NCBI GenBank assembly: GCA_963773065.1
Contig: CAVYZN010000010.1
Span: forward strand, 1 to 34,147
Source of the DNA: an uncultured Gammaproteobacteria bacterium
GTDB lineage: Bacteria; Pseudomonadota; Gammaproteobacteria; UBA9214
Direction of reading: 5' to 3'
Length of the DNA: 34,147 nucleotides
Shown here: piece after piece, positions 6,232 through 23,948 of the stretch
Numbering within the stretch: the stretch's first letter is position 1
Layout of the letters: each line of letters begins with the position of its first letter
The notes under the pieces: generated by a model
What the model was told of the DNA's origin: nothing
Seen by the model: the letters and a program-made list of their open reading frames with translations, nothing else
Database searches by the model: none
Made by a program: the position numbers and the translations under genes

Positions 6232-6609
6232 TCAGTTTTCCTGTGCGCCCTGGTCTATCCAGAGTTTTATGGTGTTGATTTCATCCGGTGTAAGCGGTTG
6301 TTTGCCATGCGGCATATTGATTGTGGGGTCGGCTTTTCCGGCAACGAGTATGTACAAGGTGCTGGACTCCGATGAACCCGGGACGATGACTGGACCAAAT
6401 TTTGTCCCTTTCATGATTGACGCATAGGAATCGAGCTGAAAACCGCTCTTGTTTGCACCATCCTTGTTTGGCATGTGACATTCAGCGCAATATTTATCCA
6501 TGATCGGTCTAACGTCTGCAGTGTAACTCAACTTTTTTTCCCCGCTGCATCCAATGGTTGCCAGAGCACTGGCCAGGATAAGGGGTAACAATCCATACCT
6601 GCTTGTCAT
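6232..6609 (-). CDS. Lipoprotein c-type cytochrome (Planctomycete cytochrome C-like domain)
   Basis: Lipobox-like TIGC, DVRPIMDKYCAECH heme motif, IVPG..ESS.L, MP distal ligand, WIDQGA. Confidence 0.82.
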   Translation of the reverse strand: MTSRYGLLPLILASALATIGCSGEKKLSYTADVRPIMDKYCAECHMPNKDGANKSGFQLDSYASIMKGTKFGPVIVPGSSESSTLYILVAGKADPTINMPHGKQPLTPDEINTIKLWIDQGAQEN

Positions 6610-6880
6610 CTTTAACTCCCCCGGATCTGGTAGATAATGCAGGATCCATATTTTTAGATAGGCTACACCTTCAGATGTATGACTTCATTGATCTCAATCA
6701 ATGTTCATCCTACCTCAATCCTTGCTCGTAATAAATCATGGAAAGTTCGATTATTCACATCGAACCGTTACGGCGCCACGCTCACCAACAAAAACGTTCT
6801 GATCTGAAAGTAAAAATCCTGGTGTCTCGAAGTCGTGCATTTTCCATGGCGAGTCTGCTCTATTCGACCATGGCGAGTCT

Positions 6881-6943
6881 AAGACCGAACGCTATGCCTA
6901 CCTGATGCCGGAAAATCTCCGTGGCGCCGTTGAACTGCTGTAG
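6881..6943 (+). pseudogene. Tyrosine recombinase/integrase C-terminal relic
   Basis: Translates KTERYAYLMPENLRGAVELL*, resembling the TxRYAHLxPExLRxAV tail around the catalytic Tyr. Lies 70 nt from the tRNA-Pro 3' end. Confidence 0.6.
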
Positions 6944-7013
6944 GGTGTTTCGCGATCGAGTTGCATTGCAGAATCAGGATCGAGAAACGGACGGGATTCG
7001 TTTCTGATTTGAT

Positions 7014-7090
7014 TGGTCGGGGTGAGAGGATTTGAACCTCCGACCCCTGCCTCCCGAAGGCAGTGCTCTACCAGACTGAGCTACACCCCG
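7014..7090 (-). tRNA. tRNA-Pro(CGG)
   Basis: CGGGGTGTAGCTCAGTCTGGTAGAGCACTGCCTTCGGGAGGCAGGGGTCGGAGGTTCAAATCCTCTCACCCCGACCA; anticodon loop TTCGGGA. Starts 1 nt after the ispB stop. Confidence 0.97.
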
Positions 7091-7091
7091 A

Positions 7092-8093
7092 TTAATACGT
7101 GCGATTGACGGAAAATTCCGCGAGGCTGTACAGGGCCTCTTTGTAGGTGGATGCCGGTAACGCATCCAGTGCCGCAATGGCCTGGTCGGCTTCCCGTTGC
7201 GCGGCCTGTGCAGTGTACGGGATGCTTCCGGTTGATTCAATGGCGGCGAGTACGGCTGATATGTTTTCATGACCGCCGTTCTCGATGGCCTTGCGGATGA
7301 GTTGCGCCTCGCCCGGCGTACCCTTGCGCATGGCGCGAAGCAGGGGCAGGGTCGGCTTGCCCTCGGCCAGGTCGTCCCCGAGGTTTTTGCCGGTATCCCC
7401 GGGCGAGGCGCTGTAGTCCAGGACATCGTCGATCAACTGGAAGGCGATGCCGAGGTGCAGTCCGTAGCTGGCCAGCGCGGTTTCAACCGCATCCGGCTGC
7501 CCGCCCAGGATCGCGCCGATCTGCGCGGCGGCCTCGAACAGCTTGGCGGTCTTGCGGCTGATCACTTCCATGTAGCGCGCCTCGGTCGTCTCCGCATCGT
7601 GGCAGTTAAGCAATTGCAGCACTTCCCCCTCGGCAATGGTATTGGTCGTATGCGACATGATTTCCATGATGCGCATATTGTTGGCCTCGACCATCATCTC
7701 AAAGGCGCGCGAATAGAGAAAATCACCGACCAGGACACTGGCCTCGTTGCCCCAAACGGCATTGGCGGTCATGTTGCCGCGTCGCAATTGCGAGGCATCG
7801 ACCACATCATCATGCAACAGCGTAGCGGTATGGATGAACTCGATCACCGCGGCCAGGTTGATATGCTGGTCGCCCTGGTAGTGGCAGGCGCGGGCGGAAA
7901 GCAGTACCAGCAGGGGGCGCAGACGCTTGCCGCCACTGTTGATGATGTAATTTGAAAGCTGGTTGATCATGGCCACATTGCTGTACAGGCGCGATCTGAT
8001 CAAAATGTCCACTGTCGCCACGTCGTCGGATACGAGCGCACGTAGCGCATCGACGCTAATCATAACCTGCTGATTGGAGATAACTTCCTGCAT
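7092..8093 (-). CDS. ispB: Octaprenyl-diphosphate synthase
   Basis: GGKRLRP, LLHDDVVD..RRG, FQLIDDVLD and GKNLGDDLAEGKPTLP motifs; divergent from rplU. True start may be slightly downstream of 8093. Confidence 0.95.
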   Translation of the reverse strand: MQEVISNQQVMISVDALRALVSDDVATVDILIRSRLYSNVAMINQLSNYIINSGGKRLRPLLVLLSARACHYQGDQHINLAAVIEFIHTATLLHDDVVDASQLRRGNMTANAVWGNEASVLVGDFLYSRAFEMMVEANNMRIMEIMSHTTNTIAEGEVLQLLNCHDAETTEARYMEVISRKTAKLFEAAAQIGAILGGQPDAVETALASYGLHLGIAFQLIDDVLDYSASPGDTGKNLGDDLAEGKPTLPLLRAMRKGTPGEAQLIRKAIENGGHENISAVLAAIESTGSIPYTAQAAQREADQAIAALDALPASTYKEALYSLAEFSVNRTY

Positions 8094-8269
8094 TCCTGTG
8101 TCGATATGTCCGGATTCGGCCGCCGACTCGCCGGATACCTGACGGACTCGCTAGTCTAACGATGTTAAACGCCATGTACCAGAAGGTATTTGATTGACCT
8201 TAAAGAGAGCAATCATTAAAATGAGCGGCCTTTTTCAGGATTCTGTGTAGTGTACCTGGAGTGTCCGAC

Positions 8270-8578
8270 ATGTATGCGGTGATCAAAACCGGTGGTAAGC
8301 AGTACCGCGTCTCGCAAGGAGATACCTTGAGGATTGAGAAACTGGAAGCCGGTGAAGGTGAATCCGTCGAGTTCGAGCAGGTGCTGATGGTGGGCGAGGG
8401 TGACGATATCAAAATCGGCGCTCCTTACTTGGATGGCAGCCGTGTGGCCGCCAGGGTCAAAAGCCATGGCCGCGCCGACAAGGTTGAAATCATCAAGTTC
8501 AAACGCCGCAAGCATCACATGAAGCGGATGGGACATCGTCAGAGCTACACCGAAGTGGAGATCACGGGCATCTCGTGA
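8270..8578 (+). CDS. rplU: 50S ribosomal protein L21
   Basis: [30 protein letters not shown]. Confidence 0.98.
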
Positions 8579-8605
8579 TGGACCGCGCGTTTAGAGGATT
8601 ATTCG

Positions 8606-8863
8606 ATGGCACATAAAAAGGCAGGCGGCAGTACCCGTAACGGTCGCGATTCCGCGTCGAAGCGGCTCGGCGTCAAATGTTTCGGTGGTGAGTCGGTGAT
8701 TGCCGGCAACATCATTATTCGTCAGCGGGGCACACGTTTTCACGCCGGCAGTAACGTCGGTTGCGGCAGGGACCATACCCTGTTCGCCAAGAGCGACGGT
8801 ACGGTGCGTTTTGTCCAGCGCGGCACCAAAAATCGCAAGTTCGTCGAAGTGGTTGCCGGCTGA
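8606..8863 (+). CDS. rpmA: 50S ribosomal protein L27
   Basis: [29 protein letters not shown]. Confidence 0.98.
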
Positions 8864-8887
8864 ACCCGAGGTCTGGCGTGATTGATC

Positions 8888-8918
8888 AACCCCGCCACCG
8901 CGCGGGGTTTTTCATTTT
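8888..8918 (+). terminator. Rho-independent terminator after rpmA
   Basis: AACCCCGC-CACCGC-GCGGGGTT hairpin followed by TTTCATTTT. Confidence 0.8.
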
Positions 8919-8924
8919 GAATAG

Positions 8925-10073
<1,149 letters not shown>

Positions 10074-10146
10074 AGTAGCCTGTTGAAACGCTCGATACAC
10101 GGCGGGTCCCCGCCGGCGCGGGACAGGGCGCGGATTTCTGGCGAAG

Positions 10147-11273
10147 ATGTCGAAACAATTGAATACCAGCGATTGCAAGCGCTGGGTCATCAAGATCGGC
10201 AGCGCTTTGCTGACGGAAAATGGTCGTGGCCTGGCGGTGGGCGCGCTCGACGGCTGGGTTGAACAGATCGTCGCCCTGCGCAAGGAGGGCCGTGAAATGC
10301 TGCTGGTCTCATCCGGTGCGGTGGCCGAGGGCATGACGCGGCTGGGGTGGACCCGTCGCCCGCACGCCCTGCACGAATTGCAGGCGGTGGCGGCCGTCGG
10401 CCAGATGGGGCTGATCCAGGCCTATGAATCGCGTTTCCAGCGATACGGCTTGCATACCGCGCAGGTGCTGCTTACCCACGATGACCTCGCCGACCGCCAG
10501 CGTTACCTGAATGCCCGCAGTACCTTGCGCACCCTGCTCAGGCTGGGCGTGGTGCCGGTCGTGAATGAAAACGACACCGTGGCAACCGAGGAAATTCGCT
10601 TCGGCGACAACGACACGCTGGCCGCGCTGGTGGCCAATCTGGTGGAGGCCGATCTGCTGGTTCTGCTGACGGATCAGGCCGGAATGTATGACAAAGACCC
10701 GCGCAAGGACGCAGGGGCTGCGCTGGTGACCGAGGCGCGGGCCGGCGACGCGGCGCTGGAATCCATGGCGGGCGATAGCGGCGGGATGCTGGGCGCGGCG
10801 GCATGCTGACCAAGGTGCGGGCGGCGGCGCGCGCGGCGCGTTCCGGGACGCTGACGGTGATCGCCTCGGGCAAGGAGGAAAATATCCTCCAGCGCCTGGC
10901 CTCGGGCGAGGCACTCGGCACCCGGCTGTTCCCGGCCAGCGTGCCGCTCGCCGCACGCAAGCAATGGCTCGCCGGGCAACTGCAGGTGCGCGGGTGCCTG
11001 ACGCTTGATGACGGCGCCATCACCGTGCTGCGGGCGGCGGGCAGGAGCCTGCTGCCGGTCGGTGTTACCGGGGTGGAAGGTGATTTCGATCGCGGGGATC
11101 TGGTGGTGTGTTACGCGCCTGGGGGTGAGGAGGCGGCCCGCGGTCTGGTGAATTACAGCGCCGAGGAATCACGCCGGATCATCGGGCATCCCAGCCACCG
11201 CATCGAGGAGATCCTGGGTTATGTCGATGAACCGGAACTGATACACCGCGACAACCTGGTCCTGATGGGATAG
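10147..11273 (+). CDS. proB: Glutamate 5-kinase with PUA domain (frameshift near 10795)
   Basis: VIKIGS, VSSGAVA and NENDTV..FGDNDTL in ORF 10147..10809; MLTKV..SLLPVGV..IHRDNLV in ORF 10803..11273. Confidence 0.93.
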
Positions 11274-11295
11274 GGTTAGTCCATAAACACCGTTT

Positions 11296-11373
11296 TCACC
11301 GCAGAGACGCAGAGAACGCAGAGAAATTGTTTTCGTAAAGAATTTCTTTGCGTCCTTTGCGTCTCTGCGGTGA
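11296..11373. repeat. Long palindrome of the GxxExxY-associated repeat family, gene-less copy
   Basis: TCACCGCAGAGACGCAGAGAACGCAGAGAAATT, 12-nt loop, AATTTCTTTGCGTCCTTTGCGTCTCTGCGGTGA. Confidence 0.85.
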
Positions 11374-11403
11374 GTTTATTTGTTATGGATGGACGCCAGG
11401 TAG

Positions 11404-11432
11404 AAATGAAAAAGCCGGTCGATGACCGGCTT
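11404..11432 (-). terminator. Rho-independent terminator after rpsT
   Basis: Minus strand reads AAGCCGGTC-ATC-GACCGGCTT-TTTCATTT. Confidence 0.78.
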
Positions 11433-11459
11433 GGTTGAGTACGCAGGCGCGCCTGAAAA

Positions 11460-11720
11460 TCAGAGGGCGCGGATATGCTGATTGAGTCGGCTCTTGTGGC
11501 GGGCGGCCTTGTTGTGATGAATCAGTCCCTTGCCTACGGCGCTGTCGATGACCGGTACCGCCTTGCGGTAGGCCTGCGTGGCGGCCTCTGAATTGCCGGT
11601 GCGGATGGCGGCAAAGACCTTCTTGATCGAGCTGCGCAGTTCTGAGCGTTGACTGGCGTTGCGCTGGCGGTGGTTTTCCGCCTGCCGCGCCCGCTTGGTT
11701 GCTTGTGCTGTATTGGCCAA
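11460..11720 (-). CDS. rpsT: 30S ribosomal protein S20
   Basis: TTG start, ANTAQATKRARQ..KGLIHHNKAARHKSRL. Confidence 0.97.
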   Translation of the reverse strand: MANTAQATKRARQAENHRQRNASQRSELRSSIKKVFAAIRTGNSEAATQAYRKAVPVIDSAVGKGLIHHNKAARHKSRLNQHIRAL

Positions 11721-12034
11721 AGGATGACTCCTGACGCGGGTGGTTCAAAGGCGGCGTACTATGCGGATTTTCGGGTGATTTGTCAATCGCGGTACGGATG
11801 GAAGCCGGGCGTGTGTCGCATCGGCTGCCCCCGCGCGGCATGATCGGCGGTGATCGGGCCTGCTGGGGGCATGCCGCTGACCGCGTGAACCGGGAATCGT
11901 TGGACCAAACCGGTGCGCGGGGCATGACCTGCTGTTAAGCTATTGTTTTCTAAATGACCTTTACATCAGAGCTGCCAATCTTCCCGCAATGACCATCCGG
12001 CCGGATATGCCCCCGGCTGTGCATGACCCTGTGT

Positions 12035-13615
12035 ATGAGTCGCAAGCTACTAAAAAATACGATGATTGTTGGCTCGATGACGCTGGTGTCCCGGGTGCTG
12101 GGCCTGGTGCGGGACATGGTGATGGCCTGGTTCGGCGCCACCGCCGGCATGGATGCCTTTTTCGTTGCCTTCAAGATCCCGAATTTCCTGCGCCGCCTGT
12201 TTGCCGAAGGGGCTTTCTCGCAAGCCTTCGTGCCGATCATCTCCGAATACAAGGAACAACGTTCCCATGAGGCGGTCCGGGACCTGGTCAACCGGGTGGC
12301 CGGTACCTTCGGCGGGGTACTGATTCTGATTACCGTGGTGGGCGTGCTGGCCAGCCCGCTCGTGATCACGGTGTTCGCCCCGGGATTCCTGTATACGGAC
12401 AGCGCCAGATTCGACCTGGCATCGCAGATGCTGCGTATCACCTTTCCCTATATCCTGTTTGTATCGCTGGTGGCCTTCGCGGCCGGCATACTCAATACCT
12501 ATGGCCGCTTTGCCACGCCGTCGCTCGCGCCGGTGTGGTTGAACGTCGTCATGATCGGCGCCGCGTTATTCGTCGCCCCCCATCTGGAACGGCCGGTGCT
12601 GGCGCTGGCGGGCGGGGTGTTCGTCGCCGGCGTGGTGCAGGTGCTGTACATGCTGCCGTCGCTGCGGCGCATCGGGTTGTTGCCGCGGCCTCGCTGGGAC
12701 ATCCGGGACGAGGGCGTGCGGCGCATCATGAGGCTCATGCTGCCGGGCATATTCGGTTCCTCGGTCGCCCAGATCAACCTGCTGCTCGACACCCTGATCG
12801 CCTCCTTCCTGGTGACCGGCAGCGTGACGTGGCTGTACTACTCCGACCGCCTGGTGGAATTTCCTCTCGGCGTTTTCGCCATCGCCCTGTCGACGGTCAT
12901 ACTCCCGAGCCTCTCGCGCAGTCATGCCAACGCCTCTGAAGAGGAGTTTTCCGCCACGGTTGACTGGGGCCTGCGTCTGGTGCTGCTGGTCGGGATACCT
13001 TCGATGATCGGCCTGATCATACTGGCGCGGCCCGTGCTGGCCACGCTGTTCCTTTATCATGACTTCACCATATGGGATGTACGCATGGCGAGTCTGAGTC
13101 TGATGACGATGTCATTCGGATTGCCGGCCTTCATGCTGATCAAGGTGCTGGCCCCGGCATTCTACTCACGCAAGGATTCGCGGACGCCGGTGCGCATCGC
13201 GGTGATCTCCCTGGTGACCAACCTCTTGTTCAATCTGGTCATCGTAATTCCGATGGTGCGCCTGGGGGTGCCCGGCCCGCATGCCGGGCTGGCGTTCGCG
13301 ACCTCCATTGCCGCCTATGTCAATGCCGGGCTGCTGTTCCGGGTTCTGTACCGTAAACGGATTTATCAGCCGCACGCCGGATGGCGGAAATATCTCCTCC
13401 AGCTTGGTTCGGCCGCCGCCGCGATGGCCGTCGTGTTGCTGTGGGCGGCCCCGGCCCTGGCGGAATGGGCCGCCTGGCCTGCCGGACACCGTGGTCTGGT
13501 CCTTCTGGCCTGGGTATGCGCGGGATCGGCGGTTTATTTCCTCACCCTGCGCGCCGGCGGCCTGCAGGTCTCGACGCTGTGGACTACCGCGCATGCGGCC
13601 GGGGAGGGCGCATGA
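12035..13615 (+). CDS. murJ: Lipid II flippase MurJ/MviN
   Basis: SRVLGLVRD, DAFFVAFKIPNFLRRLFAEGAFSQAFVP and YYSDRLVEFPLG motifs; multiple TM helices. Confidence 0.96.
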   Translation: MSRKLLKNTMIVGSMTLVSRVLGLVRDMVMAWFGATAGMDAFFVAFKIPNFLRRLFAEGAFSQAFVPIISEYKEQRSHEAVRDLVNRVAGTFGGVLILITVVGVLASPLVITVFAPGFLYTDSARFDLASQMLRITFPYILFVSLVAFAAGILNTYGRFATPSLAPVWLNVVMIGAALFVAPHLERPVLALAGGVFVAGVVQVLYMLPSLRRIGLLPRPRWDIRDEGVRRIMRLMLPGIFGSSVAQINLLLDTLIASFLVTGSVTWLYYSDRLVEFPLGVFAIALSTVILPSLSRSHANASEEEFSATVDWGLRLVLLVGIPSMIGLIILARPVLATLFLYHDFTIWDVRMASLSLMTMSFGLPAFMLIKVLAPAFYSRKDSRTPVRIAVISLVTNLLFNLVIVIPMVRLGVPGPHAGLAFATSIAAYVNAGLLFRVLYRKRIYQPHAGWRKYLLQLGSAAAAMAVVLLWAAPALAEWAAWPAGHRGLVLLAWVCAGSAVYFLTLRAGGLQVSTLWTTAHAAGEGA

Positions 13616-13672
13616 GACACCGCCCGGGTGCTATACACTAGGCTTTTTGTTCGGGCGGTCCGGCAAATTACC

Positions 13673-14600
13673 ATGGAATTGGTTCGCGGCATTAATAACT
13701 TGCGTCCCCGTCACCGGGGGTGCGCCGCTACCATCGGCAATTTCGATGGCGTGCACCTCGGGCACCAGGCCGTGCTCGGGCAATTGTCGGAACACGCCGA
13801 GATGCTGCGCCTGCCGGTAACGGTCATCATGTTCGAGCCGCAACCGCGGGAATACTTCACCCCGGAGCGGGTGCCTCCCCGATTCACGCGGTTGAGGGAA
13901 AAGGTGGAGGCGCTGCGCCGCTTTGGCGTGGACCGGGTGCTTTGTCTGCGTTTCGGCGACTTCCTGGCCGGCCTGTTGCCGGAGGAATTTATCCGTATCA
14001 TCCTGCTGGAAGGGCTGGAGGTGAAATATCTCGTGGTCGGGGATGATTTCCGGTTTGGCAGGGGCCGGGCCGGGAATTTCGCGACTGCTCGATCGCGCCG
14101 GGGCCGCCCATGGATTTTCCGTCGTGAAAATGCATACCTTCAATATCGACGGGAAGCGCGTCAGCAGTACGCGCGTTCGCGATGCACTGGAGGCGGGTGA
14201 CCTGGCGGGGGCGGAATCCCTGCTGGGCCGGCCCTACCGCATGAGCGGCCGGGTGGCGCATGGCGACAAACGCGGCCGGACAATCGGTTTCCCGACGGCC
14301 AATATTTTTCTGCACCGCAGCGCAACACCGGTGCAGGGCGTGTTCGCGGTGGAATTGTTCGGGGTGGAGGGCGAACCCGTGCGGGGGGTCGCCAATGTCG
14401 GCAACCGTCCGACCGTGGACGGCACGCGCAGCCTGCTGGAAGTTCACCTGTTCGATTTCCACCGGGACATCTACGGCCGCCACGTACAGGTCGAGTTCCT
14501 GCACAAGATCAGGGCGGAACGGCGTTTCGAGAGTTTCGATGCCCTGCGGCGGCAGATCGAGGATGATGCGACCCAGGCGCGCGCGTGGTTTGGAAAATGA
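13673..14600 (+). CDS. ribF: Bifunctional riboflavin kinase/FAD synthetase (frameshift near 14085)
   Basis: TIGNFDGVHLGHQ and VVGDDFRFG; then VSSTRVR, GRTIGFPTAN, NVGNRPT and LEVHLFDF in the second frame. Confidence 0.93.
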
Positions 14601-14601
14601 A

Positions 14602-15138
14602 TCACCGCAAAGGCGCGAAGGACGCAAAGGGATTCTTTTACAAAACAATTTAAATTTTGCGTTCTTTGCGGTGCCATAATTCTTTATTGGATGACACAAG
14701 CTGACGAGTTGATGCCAGGGAGGGTGTCGATGAGCAGGGAAGATATACTTTCACACGAGATTATCAGCGCGGCAATCGAGGTGCACCGGAATACAGGCCC
14801 CGGTTTGCTTGAATCGGCGTATGAACAGTGCCTCTGCGTGGAACTGGGGAAAAGGAATATTGGTTTTGAGCGGCAGGTTCAAATACCGGTAAACTATAAA
14901 GGTTGTATGATCGATTGCGGTTACCGCATGGATCTGCTTGTCGATGACCTCGTCGTTCTTGAACTGAAGGCAGTCAGCACGCTGGAAAGAATTCATGAAG
15001 CACAATTGCTGATATACCTGAAACTCTCCGGAAAGCGACTTGGGATTTTACTGAATTTCAATGTTGTGCTTTTGAGAAATGGAATCAAACGAGTAGTTAA
15101 CGGCTTATGACTTCGCGCTCTTTGCGTCTTTGCGGTGA
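14602..15138. mobile_element. Putative GxxExxY cassette bounded by inverted repeats, inserted between ribF and ileS
   Basis: Left arm TCACCGCAAAGGCGCGAAGGACGCAAAG (14602-14629), partial inverted arm 14655-14673, right arm CTTCGCGCTCTTTGCGTCTTTGCGGTGA (15111-15138). Visibly more AT-rich than the flanks. Confidence 0.6.
14730..15110 (+). CDS. GxxExxY protein (PD-(D/E)XK nuclease-like)
   Basis: AAIEVHRNTGPGLLESAYEQCL, YRMDLLVDDLVVLELKAV, HEAQLLIYLK, GILLNF. GGAGG RBS before ATG 14730. Confidence 0.93.
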   Translation: MSREDILSHEIISAAIEVHRNTGPGLLESAYEQCLCVELGKRNIGFERQVQIPVNYKGCMIDCGYRMDLLVDDLVVLELKAVSTLERIHEAQLLIYLKLSGKRLGILLNFNVVLLRNGIKRVVNGL

Positions 15139-15146
15139 GAATAAAC

Positions 15147-17996
15147 GTGGCTGATTACAAAAATACCCTCAATCTTCCCAACACGGCTTTCCCCATGAAG
15201 GGCAATCTGCCCCAGCGCGAACCGGAGATACTGCAGCGCTGGGAAGCCATGGACCTCTACGGCACGCTGCGCGAGGCCTGCCGGGGACGCCCGCGATTCG
15301 TGCTGCATGACGGGCCGCCCTACGCCAACGGCGACATCCACATCGGCCATGCCGTCAACAAGGTCCTGAAGGACATCATCGTCAAGAGCAAGACCCTGAG
15401 CGGGTTCGATGCGCCCTATATTCCCGGTTGGGACTGCCACGGCCTGCCGATCGAACTCAATGTCGAGAAGCAGGTCGGCAAGCCCGGCGTCAAGGTGGAT
15501 GCGGCGGCCTTCAGGAACGCCTGCCGTGAATATGCCAGCCAGCAGGTGAACGGCCAGCGGCGGGATTTCATGCGCCTGGGGGTGGTGGGCGACTGGCGGA
15601 ATCCCTATCTCACCATGCAGTACCGCATCGAGGCCGACATCATCCGCGCGCTGGGCAGGATCGCCGAAAACGGCCACCTGTACCAAGGGCTACAAGCCGG
15701 TGCACTGGTGCACGGATTGCGGCTCCGCCCTGGCGGAGGCCGAAGTGGAATATGAGGACAAGGATTCGCTCGCCATCGATGTCCGCTTCCCGGTGCTGAA
15801 TGAGCAGGCGTTGCTCGCGCGCTGCCACCATACCGAGGGGCGTTGCGGAGAGGGTCCGCTGCCGGTCGTGATCTGGACCACCACACCCTGGACGCTGCCG
15901 GCCAACCACGCGGTCGCGCTCAATCCGGCGCTGGACTATGTCGTGGTGCAGTGCGATACCGGCCACGGGCAGGAGCGGCTGCTGCTGGCCGATGCGCTGC
16001 TAAAGGACGCCATGGGCCGTTTCAATGCGGAGAAATACCGAGGTGCTGGCCTATTGCAAGGGGAGCGATCTGGAAGGGCTGAAACTCGCGCATCCGTTCT
16101 ACCAGCGCGAGGTGCCGGTCATCCTCGGCGAGCACGTCACCACGGAGGCGGGCACCGGCGCCGTGCATACCGCGCCCGGGCATGGCCAGGAAGACTATAT
16201 CGTCGGACGCCGTTACAGCCTGCCGGTCGACAATCCGGTCGGCGGCGATGGCCGGTTTCTTCCGGACACCGAACTGTTTGCCGGACAGCATGTCTTCGAG
16301 GCCAACAATTCCGTCATCGAGGTTCTGAAGAGCCGCGGCGGCGCTGCTGCACGAAGAGAAGCTCCGGCACAGTTATCCGCACTGCTGGCGGCACAAGACG
16401 CCGATCATCTTCCGCGCCACGCCGCAATGGTTCATCAGCATGGAGCAGAATCACCTGCGCACGGCGGCATTGAGCGAGATCCGGCAGGTCGAATGGATAC
16501 CGGACTGGGGGCAGGCGCGCATCGCCGGCATGGTGGAGAACCGGCCGGACTGGTGCATCTCGCGCCAGCGGACCTGGGGTGTGCCGATCGCGCTGTTCGT
16601 GCACAGGGAAAGCGGCGAACTGCACCCGGACAGCGCCAGCCTCATCGAGGCCATCGCGCGGCGCGTCGAAGAGCGGGGCATCGACGCCTGGTATGAACTG
16701 GATCCGGCCGAGCTGCTCGGCGGCGATGCCGCCGATTATGAAAAGGTGACCGACACGCTGGACGTGTGGTTCGACTCCGGCGTGACCCACTTTGCCGTGC
16801 TGCGGCAGCGCGAGGATCTGGCGTTTCCGGCCGACCTCTACCTGGAGGGCTCCGACCAGCATCGCGGCTGGTTCCAGTCTTCGCTGCTCACCTCGGTCGC
16901 CATGTGCGGCATGGCGCCCTACAAGGCGGTGCTGACCCACGGCTTTACCGTCGATGCCAACGGCCAGAAGATGTCCAAATCCCGGGGCAATGTGGTGGCC
17001 CCGCAGAAGGTGGTGAATGCGCTCGGCGCCGATATCCTGCGCCTGTGGGTGGCCGCGACCGACTACCGCGGCGAGATGAGCGGTCTCGGACGAGATCCTG
17101 AAACGCATGGGCGACTCCTATCGCCGCCTGCGCAACACCGCCCGCTTTCTGCTCGCCAATCTGAACGGTTTCGATCCCGCCGCGGACCTGCTGGATCCGC
17201 GGCAAATGCTGGGTCTCGACCGCTGGGCCGTCGAACGTACCCGCTTGCTGCAGGAAGCGGGTGCGACGGCCTATGGCGATTACGAATTCCACCGCATCTA
17301 TCAGCTGGTGCACAACTTCTGCGCGGTGGATATGGGCGGCTTCTATCTGGATATCATCAAGGACCGGCAGTACACCACGCGTGCCGACGGCATCCCGCGG
17401 CGCTCCGCGCAGACGGCGATGTACCACGTGGTCGAGGCGCTGGTGCGCTGGTTCGCGCCGATCATGAGTTTCACCGCCGAGGAGATCTGGCGGCACCTGC
17501 CCGGGACCGCGTGCCGCATCGGTTTTTCTCTCGACCTGGCATGAGCTGCCGCCGGTCTGCATACGGAATCCGAGGTCCGGCGGCACATGGATGCCGATTA
17601 CTGGGACCGGGTCATCGGGTGCGTGAGGCCGTCAGCAAGGAACTGGAGAAGCTGCGGGTGGCCGGCGGGATAGGCTCCTCGCTCGATGCCGAGGTGGACC
17701 TCTATGCCGATGCGGAAACCGCCGGACTGTTGCGCGCCCTGGAGGATGAGCTGCGCTTCGTGCTGATCACCTCCTATGCCCGCGTTCATGACGCCGCCGC
17801 CCGTCCGGCTGAGGCGGTCGTGGCCGGCGATCCCGGGCGGCAACTCTGGCTGCGGGTTGCGCCCTCGGAGCATGCCAAGTGCGTGCGCTGCTGGCACCAT
17901 CGCGAGGACGTGGGTGCGAACCCGGAACATCCCGAACTCTGCGGGCGTTGCATCGAGAATATCGCGGGCGACGGTGAATTGCGCCGTTACGCCTGA
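15147..17996 (+). CDS. ileS: Isoleucine--tRNA ligase (about five frameshifts, probably sequencing indels)
   Basis: [58 protein letters not shown] and C-terminal CxRCW..CGRC, spread over successive frames. Confidence 0.94.
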
Positions 17997-18022
17997 AAAC
18001 CCGTCTTGCGGAGCAATCGCGC

Positions 18023-18499
18023 ATGAAATGGTTCTGGCTTTCCGGGGTGGTGCTGATCCTGGATCAGTGCAGCAAATGGATCGCCGATTCCCTGCTGGAT
18101 CCGCACGACTCCATCCCGCTGCTGCCGATCCTTGCCCTGCGCAAGGCCTACAATCCGGGCGCGGCTTTCAGCTTTTTGAGCGATGCCGCCGGCTGGCAGC
18201 GTTGGTTCTTCGTCGGGTTGGCGCTAGTGGTTATCGTCGTGCTCGTGGCCTGGCTGCGGCGTCTCCCCCAGGGGCAGGGACGCATGGCGCTTGCGCTGGC
18301 GCTGATACTGGGCGGGGCGGCGGGCAACCTGGTCGACCGGTTGCTCTACGGTCATGTCATCGATTTCATCGACCTGTATTACCGCGCCTGGCACTGGCCC
18401 ACGTTCAATATCGCCGATTCGGCGATCACGCTCGGCGCCGCGCTGTTGCTGCTCGATGCCTTCATGGGGCGCAGGGAAGAAACCCCGGGAAAACAATGA
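18023..18499 (+). CDS. lspA: Lipoprotein signal peptidase II
   Basis: DQCSK, NPGAAFS, GNLVDR, VIDFI and FNIADS motifs. Confidence 0.96.
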   Translation: MKWFWLSGVVLILDQCSKWIADSLLDPHDSIPLLPILALRKAYNPGAAFSFLSDAAGWQRWFFVGLALVVIVVLVAWLRRLPQGQGRMALALALILGGAAGNLVDRLLYGHVIDFIDLYYRAWHWPTFNIADSAITLGAALLLLDAFMGRREETPGKQ

Positions 18500-18544
18500 G
18501 CGGCGCCTTTATCGAGTGTTAACATGAATGGCTGACATTTCTTC

Positions 18545-18634
18545 GTCGTCATTCCGGCCAAACGAGCATAGCGAGCGCGAGCCGGAATCCAGGAACCTTA
18601 AGGACATCCTGGATTCCCGCTTTCGCGGGAATGA
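18545..18634. repeat. REP/dRS3-like palindromic element 1, interrupted by intron copy 1 (completed by CGAC at 20560-20563)
   Basis: GTCGTCATTCCGGC..GCCGGAATCCAGG..CCTGGATTCCCGCTTTCGCGGGAATGA|CGAC. Removing the intron restores the GTCGTCATTCC/GGAATGACGAC terminal inverted repeat. Confidence 0.85.
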
Positions 18635-20559
18635 GTGCGCCCGTGAAGGCGCGGTATCCGCATGGTGAAAGTCCATGCCGGGGCAAGCCAAGACCCCGAA
18701 GCCGAAGGTAACTGCGTCGCCGCGAGGCGGGGTGGAGAGCAACTGGAGGCGAACTGGCGGTCCGCAGGGTAACGAACTCGATTCGGCGGGATGCAGCGAC
18801 GAGCCTGCTCATTCATGGCGAAGTCCGAAACACGCCCGGCACGCTGGTAATGGCGTGCAAAGCGCTGCCGGGGCGCATCACGTGGTTGGAGGCGGAACGT
18901 TGGGAAGGTATCGCGAGATAAGCGGGGAGACCTGCCGTCGAGGTGACGTCGGCAGGGGTCAGAACCTTCGTAGTACCGAAGGACGGAGCAAGGAAGCCAT
19001 GGCACAAACCGAGGGAAACCGGAGTTCGAGAGCAGGGGTGCATACCCCGCCTAACGCTTGCCCTGCCCGTCTGAGAGGTGCGGAAAGCAAAGCCGCTCCG
19101 AGGGAAGGGAGGTAGGAAGGTGGATGTGTGAAATCTGGAAAGAGGCAAAGCGTGAGCGCAGCATCGGTAGTGCCCGCGAGGGCTAAACAAGAAGCGGAAA
19201 CCCGGGTCCGAGACTGGAGCTGGGTGGACACCACGATCTGGACGGAACGCATGTTGGCGGCGCTGGATAACGGCGTCAAAGGAAGCAAATGGTTCAGCCT
19301 GATCGACAAAGTCGCGCGGGCGGACACGCTGCGCCAAGCCTGGGAGAAAGTTGCCCGGAACAAAGGTGTGGCGGGAGTGGACGGGCAAAGCGTGGAGAAG
19401 TTTGCCGCGCAGGCGGAGGCTTATCTGAACGAACTGGAAGAAACGTTGAAGCGGGGCAGTTACCGGCCGCAGCCGGTCAAGCGCGTGGAGATTCCCAAAG
19501 GACCGGGGCAAACCCGGCCGCTGGGCATCCCGGCGGTGAAAGACCGCATCGTGCAGACCGCGCTCAAGCGGGTATGTGAGCCCATCTTCGAGCGGGAATT
19601 CCACGACAACAGCTACGGCTTCCGCCCCGGACGCGGATGCAAGGACGCTCTGAGAGAAGTCGACCGGCTCATCAAGGACGGCTACCCCCACGTAGTGGAT
19701 GCCGACCTCAAGAGCTACTTCGACAGTATCCCGCATGAACGGCTGCTGGCCCGGGTAGAAGAACGGATTAGTGATGGGCGAGTCCTTGACCTGATCCGAG
19801 GCTACCTGAGCCAAGACATCCTGCATGGCCTGGTGCGCTGGACACCGACGGGAGGCACGCCGCAAGGCGCGGTCATCAGCCCGTTACTGGCGAACCTCTA
19901 CCTGCACCCGCTGGACGGCCTGATGCAAGGCAAGGGGTACCGGATGGTTCGGTATGCCGACGACTTCGTCATACTTTGCCGGACGGCGGAAGAAGCGAAG
20001 GCCGCACTGGAAGAAGTGCATGCCTGGGTGGAAGCTAACGGTCTTGCCCTGCACCCCAACAAGACCCAAGTGGGCGACTGTCGGGAAACGGGGCAAGGCT
20101 TCGACTTCCTGGGCTACCGCTTCGAAGCGGGGCGGCGCTGGGTGCGCAAGAAAAGCCTGAGAGCCATACGGGACAAGCTGCGGAGCAGGACCGGACGCAC
20201 GCGCGGGGAGAGCCTGAGGAGCATGATCGCGGAGATCAACCCGATCCTGAAAGGCTGGTTTGGCTACTTCAAGCATGCCCACCCGCTAGAGTTCAAGCGA
20301 CTGGACGGCTTCATCCGTCGTCGCCTGCGGGCGCTGTTGCGCAAACGGGCGAAGCGGCCGGGAATGGGGCACTGCCATGCTGATCATGCGCGTTGGCCGA
20401 AGGCTTTCTTCGCTGAGCAAGGGCTCTTCACCTTGACCGGAGCCCATGCGCAGGCGAGCCAATCACGATGTTGAAACCACCGACTGGAGAGCCGTGTGCG
20501 GGAGAACCGCACGCACGGTTCGGAGGGAGGGGAGGGCGCGAGCCCTTCTCTACCCCTAT
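18635..20559 (+). mobile_element. Group II intron, copy 1 (1925 bp)
   Basis: 5' GTGCG; domain V GAGCCGTGTGCGGGAGAACCGCACGCACGGTTC (20489-20521); domain VI with bulged A; 3' ..CCCCTAT. Boundaries confirmed by where identity with copy 2 ends. Confidence 0.95.
19128..20474 (+). CDS. ltrA: Group II intron reverse transcriptase/maturase (no endonuclease domain)
   Basis: GVDG, RPLGIPAVKDRIVQ, SYGFRPGR, DADLKSYFDSIPH, GTPQGAVISPLLANLYL, RYADDF, FDFLGY and GWFGYF motifs. Confidence 0.96.
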   Translation: MKSGKRQSVSAASVVPARAKQEAETRVRDWSWVDTTIWTERMLAALDNGVKGSKWFSLIDKVARADTLRQAWEKVARNKGVAGVDGQSVEKFAAQAEAYLNELEETLKRGSYRPQPVKRVEIPKGPGQTRPLGIPAVKDRIVQTALKRVCEPIFEREFHDNSYGFRPGRGCKDALREVDRLIKDGYPHVVDADLKSYFDSIPHERLLARVEERISDGRVLDLIRGYLSQDILHGLVRWTPTGGTPQGAVISPLLANLYLHPLDGLMQGKGYRMVRYADDFVILCRTAEEAKAALEEVHAWVEANGLALHPNKTQVGDCRETGQGFDFLGYRFEAGRRWVRKKSLRAIRDKLRSRTGRTRGESLRSMIAEINPILKGWFGYFKHAHPLEFKRLDGFIRRRLRALLRKRAKRPGMGHCHADHARWPKAFFAEQGLFTLTGAHAQASQSRC

Positions 20560-20644
20560 CGACTGTTAGTTATGACGTGCGTCACTTATTTATGTAAGTC
20601 TCAATAAGTTGATGACATCCAGGGGGATAGTTTTGACCAGACGT

Positions 20645-21099
20645 GTGAAATATCCCATCGGCGCGGGCAGCACCGTCACCCTGCATTTCTCGCTCACGCT
20701 GGAAGACGGCACGGTGGCCGATAGCACCTTTGACGGTGAGCCGCATACCTTTATCCTGGGTGACGGGTCGCTGCTGCGCGGTCTGGAACTGGCGCTCTAC
20801 GGCCTGCGTCCGGGCGATACCCAGCGCCTGCTGCTGCACCCCGAACAGACCTTCGGGATGCGCGATCCGGCTAAAATTCATCACCTGCCGCGCGCGGAGT
20901 TCGCCGACGACATCACCCTGGAACCGGGCATCATCATCGGCTTTACCGACGCCGGCGGCGAGGAGATACCCGGGACCGTCTGTCCGCGACCGAAGCGGCC
21001 GTCGAGGTGGACTTCAATCACCCGCTGGCAGGCCATGCCGTCACCTTCGATGTGGAAATCATCGACGTGGTCCCGGCGGATATCGATGACGCCGATTGA
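20645..21099 (+). CDS. fkpB: FKBP-type peptidyl-prolyl isomerase SlpA/FkpB (frameshift near 20985)
   Basis: VTLHFSLTLEDGTVADST..LGDGSLL; then VEVDFNHPLAGHAVTFDVEII* in the shifted frame. Canonical position after lspA. Confidence 0.9.
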
Positions 21100-21102
21100 T
21101 GT

Positions 21103-21133
21103 TCACCGCAAAGACGCAAAGGACGCAGAGAAA
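21103..21133 (+). repeat. Lone left arm of the GxxExxY-associated repeat
   Basis: TCACCGCAAAGACGCAAAGGACGCAGAGAAA, 3 nt after the fkpB stop. I found no matching right arm downstream. Confidence 0.75.
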
Positions 21134-21192
21134 AACTTTGTTTAATGAAAAACAGATCAATGCGAAAGATGTTTTAGAGAATCTCTGAGCAC

Positions 21193-21268
21193 GTCATCCC
21201 CGCGAAAGCGGGGATCCAGTAACCCACTCGATCCTGTACAGACTGGATTCCCGCTTTCGCGGGAATGA
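21193..21268. repeat. REP/dRS3-like palindromic element 2, interrupted by intron copy 2
   Basis: GTCATCCCCGCGAAAGCGGGGATCCAGT..ACTGGATTCCCGCTTTCGCGGGAATGA|C(23194). Confidence 0.85.
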
Positions 21269-23193
21269 GTGCGCCCGTGAAGGCGCGGTATCCGCATGGT
21301 GAAAGTCCATGCCGGGGCAAGCCAAGACCCCGAAGCCGAAGGTAACTGCGTCGCCGCGAGGCGGGGTGGAGAGCAACTGGAGGCGAACTGGCGGTCCGCA
21401 GGGTAACGAACTCGATTCGGCGGGATGCAGCGACGAGCCTGCTCATTCATGGCGAAGTCCGAAACACGCCCGGCACGCTGGTAATGGCGTGCAAAGCGCT
21501 GCCGGGGCGCATCACGTGGTTGGAGGCGGAACGTTGGGAAGGTATCGCGAGATAAGCGGGGAGACCTGCCGTCGAGGTGACGTCGGCAGGGGTCAGAACC
21601 TTCGTAGTACCGAAGGACGGAGCAAGGAAGCCATGGCACAAACCGAGGGAAACCGGAGTTCGAGAGCAGGGGTGCATACCCCGCCTAACGCTTGCCCTGC
21701 CCGTCTGAGAGGTGCGGAAAGCAAAGCCGCTCCGAGGGAAGGGAGGTAGGAAGGTGGATGTGTGAAATCTGGAAAGAGGCAAAGCGTGAGCGCAGCATCG
21801 GTAGTGCCCGCGAGGGCTAAACAAGAAGCGGAAACCCGGGTCCGAGACTGGAGCTGGGTGGACACCACGATCTGGACGGAACGCATGTTGGCGGCGCTGG
21901 ATAACGGCGTCAAAGGAAGCAAATGGTTCAGCCTGATCGACAAAGTCGCGCGGGCGGACACGCTGCGCCAAGCCTGGGAGAAAGTTGCCCGGAACAAAGG
22001 TGTGGCGGGAGTGGACGGGCAAAGCGTGGAGAAGTTTGCCGCGCAGGCGGAGGCTTATCTGAACGAACTGGAAGAAACGTTGAAGCGGGGCAGTTACCGG
22101 CCGCAGCCGGTCAAGCGCGTGGAGATTCCCAAAGGACCGGGGCAAACCCGGCCGCTGGGCATCCCGGCGGTGAAAGACCGCATCGTGCAGACCGCGCTCA
22201 AGCGGGTATGTGAGCCCATCTTCGAGCGGGAATTCCACGACAACAGCTACGGCTTCCGCCCCGGACGCGGATGCAAGGACGCTCTGAGAGAAGTCGACCG
22301 GCTCATCAAGGACGGCTACCCCCACGTAGTGGATGCCGACCTCAAGAGCTACTTCGACAGTATCCCGCATGAACGGCTGCTGGCCCGGGTAGAAGAACGG
22401 ATTAGTGATGGGCGAGTCCTTGACCTGATCCGAGGCTACCTGAGCCAAGACATCCTGCATGGCCTGGTGCGCTGGACACCGACGGGAGGCACGCCGCAAG
22501 GCGCGGTCATCAGCCCGTTACTGGCGAACCTCTACCTGCACCCGCTGGACGGCCTGATGCAAGGCAAGGGGTACCGGATGGTTCGGTATGCCGACGACTT
22601 CGTCATACTTTGCCGGACGGCGGAAGAAGCGAAGGCCGCACTGGAAGAAGTGCATGCCTGGGTGGAAGCTAACGGTCTTGCCCTGCACCCCAACAAGACC
22701 CAAGTGGGCGACTGTCGGGAAACGGGGCAAGGCTTCGACTTCCTGGGCTACCGCTTCGAAGCGGGGCGGCGCTGGGTGCGCAAGAAAAGCCTGAGAGCCA
22801 TACGGGACAAGCTGCGGAGCAGGACCGGACGCACGCGCGGGGAGAGCCTGAGGAGCATGATCGCGGAGATCAACCCGATCCTGAAAGGCTGGTTTGGCTA
22901 CTTCAAGCATGCCCACCCGCTAGAGTTCAAGCGACTGGACGGCTTCATCCGTCGTCGCCTGCGGGCGCTGTTGCGCAAACGGGCGAAGCGGCCGGGAATG
23001 GGGCACTGCCATGCTGATCATGCGCGTTGGCCGAAGGCTTTCTTCGCTGAGCAAGGGCTCTTCACCTTGACCGGAGCCCATGCGCAGGCGAGCCAATCAC
23101 GATGTTGAAACCACCGACTGGAGAGCCGTGTGCGGGAGAACCGCACGCACGGTTCGGAGGGAGGGGAGGGCGCGAGCCCTTCTCTACCCCTAT
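21269..23193 (+). mobile_element. Group II intron, copy 2 (1925 bp, offset 2634 from copy 1)
   Basis: Same GTGCG..CCCCTAT ends. All ORFs wholly internal to the intron have translations identical to copy 1. Confidence 0.95.
21762..23108 (+). CDS. ltrA: Group II intron reverse transcriptase/maturase, copy 2
   Basis: 448-aa translation identical to 19128..20474; YADD motif. Confidence 0.96.
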   Translation: MKSGKRQSVSAASVVPARAKQEAETRVRDWSWVDTTIWTERMLAALDNGVKGSKWFSLIDKVARADTLRQAWEKVARNKGVAGVDGQSVEKFAAQAEAYLNELEETLKRGSYRPQPVKRVEIPKGPGQTRPLGIPAVKDRIVQTALKRVCEPIFEREFHDNSYGFRPGRGCKDALREVDRLIKDGYPHVVDADLKSYFDSIPHERLLARVEERISDGRVLDLIRGYLSQDILHGLVRWTPTGGTPQGAVISPLLANLYLHPLDGLMQGKGYRMVRYADDFVILCRTAEEAKAALEEVHAWVEANGLALHPNKTQVGDCRETGQGFDFLGYRFEAGRRWVRKKSLRAIRDKLRSRTGRTRGESLRSMIAEINPILKGWFGYFKHAHPLEFKRLDGFIRRRLRALLRKRAKRPGMGHCHADHARWPKAFFAEQGLFTLTGAHAQASQSRC

Positions 23194-23266
23194 CAGACTT
23201 AATCAAAGTTCACTTAACACCGCTAATCTGAGAGTTAAATGTAATTATGAAAACGGGGAACAAGAA

Positions 23267-23490: not shown

Positions 23491-23565
23491 AATAAACCCA
23501 GACAGAGTCAAGCAGAAGAAGGCGGTATGTGTAATGCTTGCATGCTTTGAAGTGCCGCGCTTTAT

Positions 23566-23948
23566 GTTTGAATGACAGCCCTGATGAAGAGGGGATTAAG
23601 ACCTATGTGATTCACGTTAAGCATCCGTTCACGTATTATTTGTTTGAACGACAGCCCTGATGAAGAAGGGATTAAGACCGGGACTACACACTCGCGTACT
23701 CCTCATCCTTGAACAATTCAGGTTTAAACGACAGCCCTGATGAAGAAGGGATTAAGACGTCTGCATTATTTGCCCAAGGTTAATGTGTTACCGTTGTTTG
23801 AACGACAGCCCTGATGAAGAAGGGATTAAGACCGCAATGCGCTTCATCTATGAAGCCTCCTCGATGTTTGAACGACAGCCCTGATGAAGAAGGGATTAAG
23901 ACTTCGCAGGTAATCGACATCCCATGGTTGCAGTGGTTTGAACGACAG
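23566..23948 (+). CRISPR. Orphan CRISPR array, type III-like 37-bp repeat; 5 full repeats, 1 truncated repeat, 5 spacers
   Basis: GTTTGAACGACAGCCCTGATGAAGAAGGGATTAAGAC at 23566, 23642, 23722, 23796 and 23866; 13-bp partial repeat at 23936. Unique spacers of 39, 43, 37, 33 and 33 nt. CCCT/AGGG hairpin and ATTAAGAC 3' end. Confidence 0.95.

Follow-up and report, generated by a model that had tools for sequence, protein, structure and literature searches.

Identical endonuclease-less group II introns at one nucleotide of a REP-type hairpin, and a lineage of relatives inserted beside hairpins

Introduction

What places two apparently identical group II introns after exactly the same nucleotide of a repeated palindrome? 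This question is raised by contig CAVYZN010000010.1 of an uncultured gammaproteobacterium of the UBA9214 lineage (NCBI GenBank assembly GCA_963773065.1), which was analysed here over its entire length of 34,147 nucleotides (nt) and is referred to as the window; it is the whole of contig C10 in the assembly, G000, which comprises 33 contigs and 3.84 Mb. A preliminary description, made from the letters of the window, had proposed that an endonuclease-less intron outside class C uses a multicopy repetitive extragenic palindromic (REP) element as a renewable safe harbour. The explanation reached here, which is held with good confidence, is that of an intact and recently active retroelement devoid of a second exon-binding site (EBS2), which inserts beside hairpins, in this case those of CGTC-1/dRS3-type REPs, by means of EBS1 and EBS3.

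Hairpin or terminator targeting is ascribed to class C (IIC) introns alone in the cited sections of Zimmerly and Semper 2015 (PMC4424553) and Gomes 2025 (PMC12584367). The passages cited from Toor 2006 (PMC1702495) place IIC introns after terminators "or other inverted repeats" and propose the stem-loop as a stand-in for the pairing of EBS2 with intron-binding site 2 (IBS2) that is missing in this class. Structures resembling attC have also been suggested upstream of truncated class IIB introns, in the cited part of Sonbol and Siam 2021 (PMC7923331). As to REPs, the cited section of Tobes and Pareja 2006 (PMC1525189) locates two of the nine copies of a Pseudomonas putida KT2440 group II intron at these elements and lists ISPpu9, ISPpu10 and ISPa11 as targeting them.

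Results

Three intron copies share one insertion nucleotide

Pairwise alignment and blastn against the whole assembly bore out the two 1925-bp introns that had been reported between CTGGATTCCCGCTTTCGCGGGAATGA and a C, with a mutual identity of 100% (Table 1). The identity shared by the two copies extends from 26 nt upstream (CTGGATTCCCGCTTTCGCGGGAATGA) to 1 nt downstream (C) of the intron. A third, decayed copy was recovered by blastn on the minus strand of contig C5 (approximately 7582-4844), and the genome-wide search thereby added a copy in the same hairpin and not in unrelated sequence. Identity of this copy to the window intron amounts to approximately 75-79% in domain I and at the 5' end and to 98% over the last 57 nt; most of its reverse transcriptase (RT) gene is deleted and it is interrupted within domain V by a second, unrelated intron. 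Its 5' flank is the same hairpin followed by GA (...ATTCCCGCTTTCGCGGGAATGA) and its 3' flank is C, the insertion nucleotide being that of the window copies.

The intron nested in the domain V loop of the C5 copy is an observation in its own right. It lies at approximately 4901-6893 on the minus strand (locus L095), giving a "twintron-like" arrangement, matches Rfam model RF02005 (D1D4-6) at 114.9 bits and has an RT frame of its own of 475 aa. Its boundaries are approximate and its ends, as they appear, unusual, with about 120 nt between domain V and the presumed 3' terminus.

In both window copies the target REP is the right half of an inverted doublet. The intron strand reads ...GCGGGAAT-GA|CG, which places the insertion 2 nt past the stem and in the middle of the REP tag, and the target hairpin of copy 1 has an 8-bp stem and a 2-nt tail (-14.8 kcal/mol). 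Joining the exons of copy 1 regains an 11-nt outer inverted repeat between GTCGTCATTCC (18545-18555) and GGAATGA+CGAC, as expected from the earlier claim that excision restores the arm of the palindrome.

The cited part of Di Nocera 2013 (PMC3733652) describes CGTC-1 REPs, the dRS3 elements of Neisseria, by a CGTC/TGTC tag, an 8-bp stem starting with AT, a 4-nt loop, a CCA tail, occurrence as dimers and lack of a dedicated transposase gene. The same tag, AT-starting stem, loop and CCA tail, along with doublets and the lack of a flanking tyrosine-transposase gene, are found here, and judged by its sequence the target hairpin is a CGTC-1/dRS3-type REP, as had been surmised. Regarding a link with REP-associated tyrosine transposases, the assembly has 10 Y1_Tnp genes and target hairpins flank none of them, in agreement with what the same part of PMC3733652 states for CGTC-1 REPs. 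Two points differ from that description, namely the low copy number (47 relaxed hairpins in the assembly) and the orientation of the tags, which face outward in the doublets.

An oriented pattern search of the assembly yielded 17 matches, three followed by the intron and 14 by C. One of the latter is the other strand of the occupied C5 palindrome, leaving 13 separate empty sites; exact target sites, all of the form (C/T)GTC-ATTCCCGC-N4-GCGGGAAT-CCAG, are consequently occupied in 3 of 16 cases and empty in 13. The idea that a multicopy repeat leaves free landing sites is in line with these counts. Two REP subfamilies are distinguishable by their flanks, and both copy 2 (38/45 positions upstream, 13 of the first 15 downstream) and the C5 copy (41/45 positions of the 3' flank against an empty unit) match subfamily A on both sides; these flank matches allow subfamily A to serve as the empty-site comparison. 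The sequence GAATGA|C occurs unoccupied 473 times in the assembly, 14 times with the hairpin, and all three insertions are at hairpin sites. The probability of this outcome is (17/476)^3 = 4.6e-5, or 1.3e-3 if only two of the events are independent, and chance is excluded as an explanation of the hairpin position.

Some further repeats were observed around the REPs. A weak Rfam match to FtrB, a small RNA of Francisella, at 18593-18657 on the minus strand (18.6 bits, cut-off 66) is due solely to the shared ATTCCCGCG..GCGGGAAT hairpin and shows how widely the REP form occurs. A second dispersed repeat family (GTTCACCGCAAAGACGCAAAGGACGCAGAGAAA...) lies beside the REPs at 21100-21135; it also flanks them on contigs C9 and C32, and in one relative, G001 (L067), it fills the lspA-fkpB spacer. 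Directly downstream of copy 2 (23564-23948), a direct repeat of about 37-41 nt (GTTTGAACGACAGCCCTGATGAAGAAGGGATTAAGAC...) occurs five times at a spacing of 70-80 nt, in a manner resembling an array of clustered regularly interspaced short palindromic repeats (CRISPR).

Anatomy of the element

The intron begins with GUGCG at 18635 and ends with ...CUAU. Its domains V-VI are matched by Rfam model RF00029 in both copies (20487-20559 and 23121-23193) with 57.4 bits against a cut-off of 40. The fold of domain I contains 82 pairs, 67 of them with compensatory changes among 20 relatives, and the alpha-alpha' pairing is kept in 93.8% of 80 cells against 16-55% in slid controls, both sides having changed in 4 cells. 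The AGC triad claimed for domain V was located in the first nucleotides of that domain (Table 1), the form of which (AGC triad, 33 nt, 4-bp distal stem, 5-nt loop) is the same in 30 relatives. The predicted branch-point A is followed by 7 nt, with U at position -3.

The RT/maturase open reading frame (ORF) is intact, and a domain search of the intron-encoded protein retrieved RVT_1 and GIIM only, with no endonuclease domain found; the element had been called endonuclease-less, and this holds. The RNA outside the ORF amounts to approximately 578 nt (1925 minus 1347). With its GUGYG-type 5' end, domains V and VI, a 3' AY and an RT and maturase ORF in domain IV, the element is a group II intron retroelement.

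Table 1. Positions in the window of the two intron copies, their functional sites and the REPs that flank them
Feature	Position	Strand	Description
Left REP of doublet 1	18544..18593	+	CGTC tag, ATTCCGGC/GCCGGAAT stem, unusually long loop, CCAGG tail; inverted repeat I7
Right REP of doublet 1, target and 5' exon end	18609..18634	+	CTGG tail, stem ATTCCCGC 18613-18620, loop TTTC, stem GCGGGAAT 18625-18632, then GA
IBS1 (GAATGA)	18629-18634	+	5' exon end of copy 1
Intron copy 1	18635..20559	+	1925 bp; Rfam, pairwise alignment, blastn; flanked by lspA and fkpB
alpha (GCCA)	18687..18690	+	Pairs with alpha' UGGC, 18851-18854, in the terminal loop of an 11-bp stem-loop
EBS1 (TCATTC)	18809..18814	+	Terminal loop of Id3 hairpin (Rfam structure line); pairs with exon GAATGA
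EBS3 (G)	18885	+	Pairs with first 3' exon base, C20560
RT/maturase ORF P0001	19128..20474	+	448 aa, in domain IV; RVT_1 5e-40, GIIM 9e-16, YADD present
Domain V	20489..20521	+	33 nt; AGC triad 20490-20492, 4-bp distal stem, 5-nt loop GAGAA
Branch-point A (predicted by analogy)	20552	+	Domain VI, 4-bp basal helix, then UAU 3' end
3' exon start of copy 1 (CGAC)	20560..20563	+	C20560 is IBS3; joined to GA, gives back the full GACG (= CGTC) tag and outer inverted repeat
Left REP of doublet 2	21192..21219	+	CGTC-ATCCCCGC-GAAA-GCGGGGAT-CCAG; inverted repeat I1, 27-nt arms, 93% complementary
Right REP of doublet 2, copy 2 target	21243..21268	+	26 nt identical to the copy 1 target; flanks match REP subfamily A
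Intron copy 2	21269..23193	+	EBS1 21443-21448, EBS3 21519, RT 21762-23108, domain V 23123-23155
3' exon of copy 2 (CAGACTTAATCAAAG)	23194..23208	+	Downstream part of subfamily-A REP unit; empty sites read CAGGCTTAATCAGAG

EBS1 and EBS3 covary with the exons and EBS2 is absent

For comparison with relatives, 62 related loci were fetched; the intron 5' end was fixed by alignment in 34 of them, and the 28 that were truncated or unalignable were left out. Sites with identical last 20-25 exon bases were counted once, whereby W2, L018, L027, L028 and L045 were dropped. The 5' ends of the D1D4-4 introns and of the unassigned plasmid introns are uncertain, and their exon hairpins were therefore not scored.

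At 23 of the 31 unique sites the EBS1 columns are complementary to exon positions -1 to -7 over 5 bp or more, compared with a maximum of 6 sites for any other bin. Contiguous pairing from position -1 reaches 6 bp at 20 sites, 5 bp at five, 4 bp at three, 7-8 bp at two and 3 bp at one; its mean of 5.65 bp is to be compared with a permutation mean of 2.92 and a permutation maximum of 3.61 (200 permutations). The candidate EBS1 of the preliminary description, TCATTC, is placed in the terminal loop of Id3 by the Rfam structure line, covaries with the exon across the 31 sites and is EBS1. The EBS3 position holds T in all five introns with an A-starting 3' exon and G in 24 of the 25 with a C-starting one, the single G-starting 3' exon being a mismatch.

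Regarding EBS2, no bin of domain I rose above the permutation null for exon positions -6 to -16 at the 31 sites, and the lineage has no EBS2. The motif CCGCGA at 18720-18725 was considered for this role and rejected, as it corresponds to the conserved GNRA hairpin IC1.

Relatives are inserted after unrelated hairpins

The lineage is found in Proteobacteria, Acidobacteriota, Planctomycetota, Verrucomicrobiota, Chlamydiota and other taxa, where its members sit after unrelated hairpins, each with a matching EBS1. At 32 unique sites the folding energy of the last 34 exon bases has a median of -12.0 kcal/mol, against -6.1 kcal/mol in 1320 control windows taken from these loci (Mann-Whitney p = 2.6e-11). 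Perfect stems of 7 bp or more are present at 12 of the 32 sites and in 5.7% of 1980 controls, and the unpaired tail between hairpin and insertion measures 0-7 nt across the 32 sites. Landing on a hairpin is no special trait of this element or of REPs: it belongs to the whole lineage and involves many unrelated hairpins. Consequently, the element works like a class C intron.

Relation to class C

That likeness raises the possibility of a plain IIC intron, to be listed as such in curated databases, which would differ from the terminator and attC introns only in the kind of hairpin used, a reading considered doubtful. In favor of it, a stem-loop precedes the insertion, EBS2 is absent, and RF02001 is the sole D1-D4 model above cut-off for the lineage. 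This model gives a marginal match to domain I of the window intron (18716-18916; 39.4 bits, cut-off 32) and scores 33-46 bits in 8 of 20 relatives; in the window scan, an overlapping hit of lower score belonging to the same Rfam clan was suppressed. By comparison, canonical terminator-type and integron attC introns, which carry a CGC triad and a CYCGAU end, score 134-140 bits, and IIC fragments of the same assembly 62-126 bits. The nearest solved RTs are those of IIC introns (2e-67 and 6e-65), followed by T.el4h (8e-46) and LtrA (8e-37). In addition, "other inverted repeats" were already among the IIC targets in the cited passage of Toor 2006.

The RNA itself argues against this possibility. 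According to the cited parts of PMC1702495, IIC introns have an EBS1-IBS1 pairing of 3-4 bp, a CGC triad, a distal stem that is 2 bp shorter and an AGGAA epsilon' bulge; their boundary consensus is 5' GUNYGCCNRGCAUGG and 3' CCUACYCGAU in the cited part of Abebe 2013 (PMC4028801), and most have G at -3 and a 3-bp domain VI base in that of Monachello 2016 (PMC4748821). The window intron pairs over 6 bp through EBS1, and its epsilon' region after stem IC1, GAGAGCAA, has AGCAA and not AGGAA, the canonical C19 fragment reading GAAGGAA. Its 5' end, GUGCGCCCGUGAAGG, agrees with the IIC consensus at 12 of 15 positions, and its 3' end, CUACCCCUAU, departs from that consensus with U at -3 and a 4-bp domain VI base. 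The comparators L084, L086, L087 and L092 fit the IIC boundary consensus. The A.v.I2 clade, of IIC introns with a 4-bp domain VI base, was considered as an identity and rejected, as the published A.v.I2 primer has a CGC-type domain V start.

The RT tree (40 rows, IQ-TREE, LG+G4) includes six IIC-type RTs only, all from plasmids. The 20 family rows form one clade (100/99), and the five CGC-type IIC RTs form another with L081 (98/98); both are within a 95/97 clade with three unassigned AGC introns and two long branches, the internal order of which is left open by the tree. The phylogeny thus sets the family apart from the sampled canonical IIC RTs and at the same time keeps both in one larger clade. 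L081 is IIC-like by its boundaries and Rfam match yet has an AGC triad. Because of this intron, an AGC in place of a CGC triad, which the preliminary description had set against class C, is not decisive on its own, and L081 can be cited for the plain IIC possibility. The earlier designation "non-IIC" is accordingly kept in part: five differing RNA signatures (the AGC triad, the 5-nt domain V loop, the 4-bp domain VI base, the UAU end and the 6-bp EBS1) and the separate RT clade speak for it, while the RF02001 match, the absence of EBS2 and the nearest solved RTs speak against it. We read the lineage, from these sequence features, as probably related to IIC and not canonical IIC.

With the IIC terminator introns, e.g. 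B.h.I1, as described in the cited parts of PMC1702495 and PMC4424553, the element has in common the lack of an endonuclease, a compact ribozyme, EBS1 and EBS3 without EBS2, a stem-loop at the IBS2 position, an intergenic location, several copies per genome and the RF02001 match. It differs from that description by a 6-bp EBS1 that overlaps the stem, the AGC triad, a 33-nt domain V with a 5-nt loop, the AGCAA epsilon', the 4-bp domain VI base, the ...CCCCUAU end and the separate RT clade, and its target hairpin has no T run. The IIC-attC introns of integrons (comparators L087 and L092) are alike in having a repeated structured DNA element as renewable landing site, but they are canonical IIC introns (RF02001 134-135 bits, CGC, CCCGAU end) in attC sites, whereas the present lineage is in REPs and simple hairpins. 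Such IIC-attC introns are reportedly treated by Leon and Roy in 2009 and by Quiroga in 2008.

Remnants of canonical IIC-type introns are present elsewhere in the assembly, at C19:61306-61890, C8:180615-180785 and C5:105664-105950 (RF02001 126, 91.5 and 62 bits). In the one on C19, a CGC triad and a CCGAU end are present and an RT is absent; the C5 remnant is a 5' fragment directly after a hairpin; and at the RT position of the C8 remnant lies a short ORF which presumably resembles a four-helix-bundle protein. Intact RT genes are absent from the other IIC-type introns of the assembly, which hence offers no RT comparator from the same genome.

Relation to class E/F

Class E/F (IIE/IIF) introns are described as having alpha' at the tip of a stem-loop in Id3, a 5-nt domain V loop and a ribozyme of 450-700 nt (Nagy 2013, PMC3753933); Pe.th.I2, Ge.ur.I1 and D.a.I1 are examples (Nagy 2013, PMC3753933; Toro and Martinez-Abarca 2013, PMC3552965). 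In the cited part of Monachello 2016 (PMC4748821), class F together with g1 is the outgroup nearest class C. The position of alpha', the size of the domain V loop and that of the RNA outside the ORF all agree with this description, as do the lack of an endonuclease, the AGC triad and a domain VI predicted by analogy to be competent for lariat formation. Compared by description, however, class E/F introns are IIB-like, with an apparent EBS2-IBS2 duplex and ordinary homing sites, whereas here no EBS2 covaries and every site adjoins a hairpin.

History of the locus

Contig C9 (37270-49201) is a 93-96% twin of window positions 7005-18502 and 20610-21183, a 14-kb stretch containing the ileS-lspA-fkpB region. 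In this twin, lspA and fkpB are separated by a gap of 18 nt with no REP and no intron, and ispH comes after fkpB. The relatives G002, G003, G004 and G009 likewise have short lspA-fkpB spacers devoid of REP and intron, and the direct junction of 18502 with 20610 is also found in contigs of three unrelated metagenomes. The twin and these four relatives were rejected as true empty sites, as the REP is also missing from them and they represent a pre-REP and not a pre-intron state; their spacers imply that the REP doublet came first and the intron later. A joint of 18634 to 20560 with 26-nt sides among the contigs of other samples (X4), and the parts that such contigs leave uncovered, were not counted as evidence.

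The first 366 nt of the intron were not found in any of 40 relatives (4 of the same genus and 24 of the same family; completeness 62-100%), several of which carry the 26-mer of the REP many times. The closest RTs are 78-80% identical and come from two Rhodocyclales-type bins, where they follow near-identical REPs. Recent activity had been suggested on the basis of the identical copies, and both their identity and the absence of the intron from all 40 relatives fit this suggestion. The sequence comparisons point to a horizontal arrival and a few jumps, all of recent date.

With a completeness of 90.9% and a contamination of 6.3%, the assembly behaves like a metagenome bin, which either mixes two related strains or includes C10 as a foreign contig. 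Reads of the source sample were not found among the sequencing runs searched (none exceeded 0.30 of words; all were contigs of other samples). Beside the introns, fkpB (20634-21100) is frameshifted near 20978 by one T fewer than in the C9 twin, four relatives and contigs of four metagenomes, and is either a real pseudogene or the result of a homopolymer error of the assembly.

Discussion

The following course of events can be proposed for the window intron. It would be transcribed with lspA-fkpB, excised as a lariat and then reinserted by reverse splicing; splicing, lariat formation and mobility are predicted here from sequence, as is the spliced exon junction ...GGGAATGA-CGAC.... Two pairings set the insertion point, that of EBS1 with GAATGA and that of EBS3 with the next base, C, and the DNA hairpin stands at the place that IBS2 has in other introns, with no second exon-binding site involved. 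Because a hairpin is present at every site of the lineage, it is most likely its structure that is recognized, as for class C introns. Insertion cuts the GACG tag of the REP in its middle, 2 nt past the stem, and the 6-bp EBS1 duplex has to open the lowest 4 bp of that stem. Replication forks may provide the priming, and the element may be active at present. Since the REP is multicopy, it offers many equivalent neutral sites.

Several observations weigh against this explanation. Only 3 of the 16 exact sites are occupied, and activity may consequently be low or over. The association with hairpins could result from survival of insertions at neutral sites and not from recognition. When EBS1 is fully paired it competes with the stem base, and this sits poorly with the reading of an intact hairpin. 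Concerning the assembly, the window resembles the C9 twin no further than 21183, a short way ahead of doublet 2, and after this position has an AT-rich region in place of the expected ispH; in a composite bin, each junction of copy 2 could derive from a different copy.

Survival at neutral palindromes and terminators is also what would produce the hairpin enrichment if homing relied on sequence alone, through IBS1 and IBS3 and perhaps protein contacts to REP bases. An EBS1 of 6 bp is also found in sequence-homing IIA and IIB introns, 4 nt of IBS1 lie within the stem here (0-6 nt in relatives), and the hairpins are weak at three family sites (-5.2 to -6.5 kcal/mol). Nevertheless, 459 of the 473 free GAATGA|C sites lack the REP hairpin and none of these is occupied, which makes seven bases insufficient; the hairpin sequences are unrelated across the lineage although the geometry, with its tail of 0-7 nt, is kept; and no second pairing covaries. 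Homing by sequence alone is therefore regarded as improbable.

An artefactual origin of copy 2, or of the junction downstream of it, during assembly, for example as a chimera formed across the 1.9-kb repeat, is similarly unlikely. The composite bin with its contamination and its twin of 7005-21183 on C9, the end of the twin similarity, the missing ispH and the source reads that the search did not retrieve would suit such an artefact, but assemblers tend to collapse a repeat and not to double it, the copies are separated by unique sequence (fkpB), REP subfamily A is matched on either side of copy 2, and the C5 copy shows the same junction independently.

An insertion beside hairpins guided by EBS1 and EBS3, as preferred here, is known in kind, and the intron is not a new kind of element. 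The elements described in the cited part of PMC1525189, a group II intron among them, resemble it in being mobile DNA that inserts at REPs. Those elements are mostly DNA transposons and the P. putida intron is loosely associated with REPs, whereas in the present case all three copies are at one nucleotide, a position explained by RNA-DNA pairing. What sets the present case apart is that a coherent sister lineage, found widely, differs in its RNA signatures and has an EBS1 of 6 bp reaching into the stem.

Tentatively, this widespread endonuclease-less lineage may stand beside class C and unite a full-length EBS1 of 6 bp and domains V/VI of the class E/F type with a targeting that depends on hairpins and dispenses with EBS2, as a living intermediate in which hairpin recognition replaces the IBS2-EBS2 pairing. 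If this were true, hairpin targeting would be older or wider than class C, contradicting the view that class C is the sole lineage not to use ordinary homing sites. It would constitute a second coherent RT clade with hairpin-directed insertion but different RNA hardware, namely the 6-bp EBS1, the AGC triad and a domain VI that by analogy appears lariat-competent. If confirmed, it would make two questions testable: whether it is the ribozyme or the protein that reads the stem-loop, and in what way this reading came to replace EBS2. With one 26-nt target, 13 empty sites and identical copies, the locus offers a natural system for studying REPs as renewable safe harbours, and the intron, compact and with a target rule of a hairpin plus 7 nt, could be reprogrammed.

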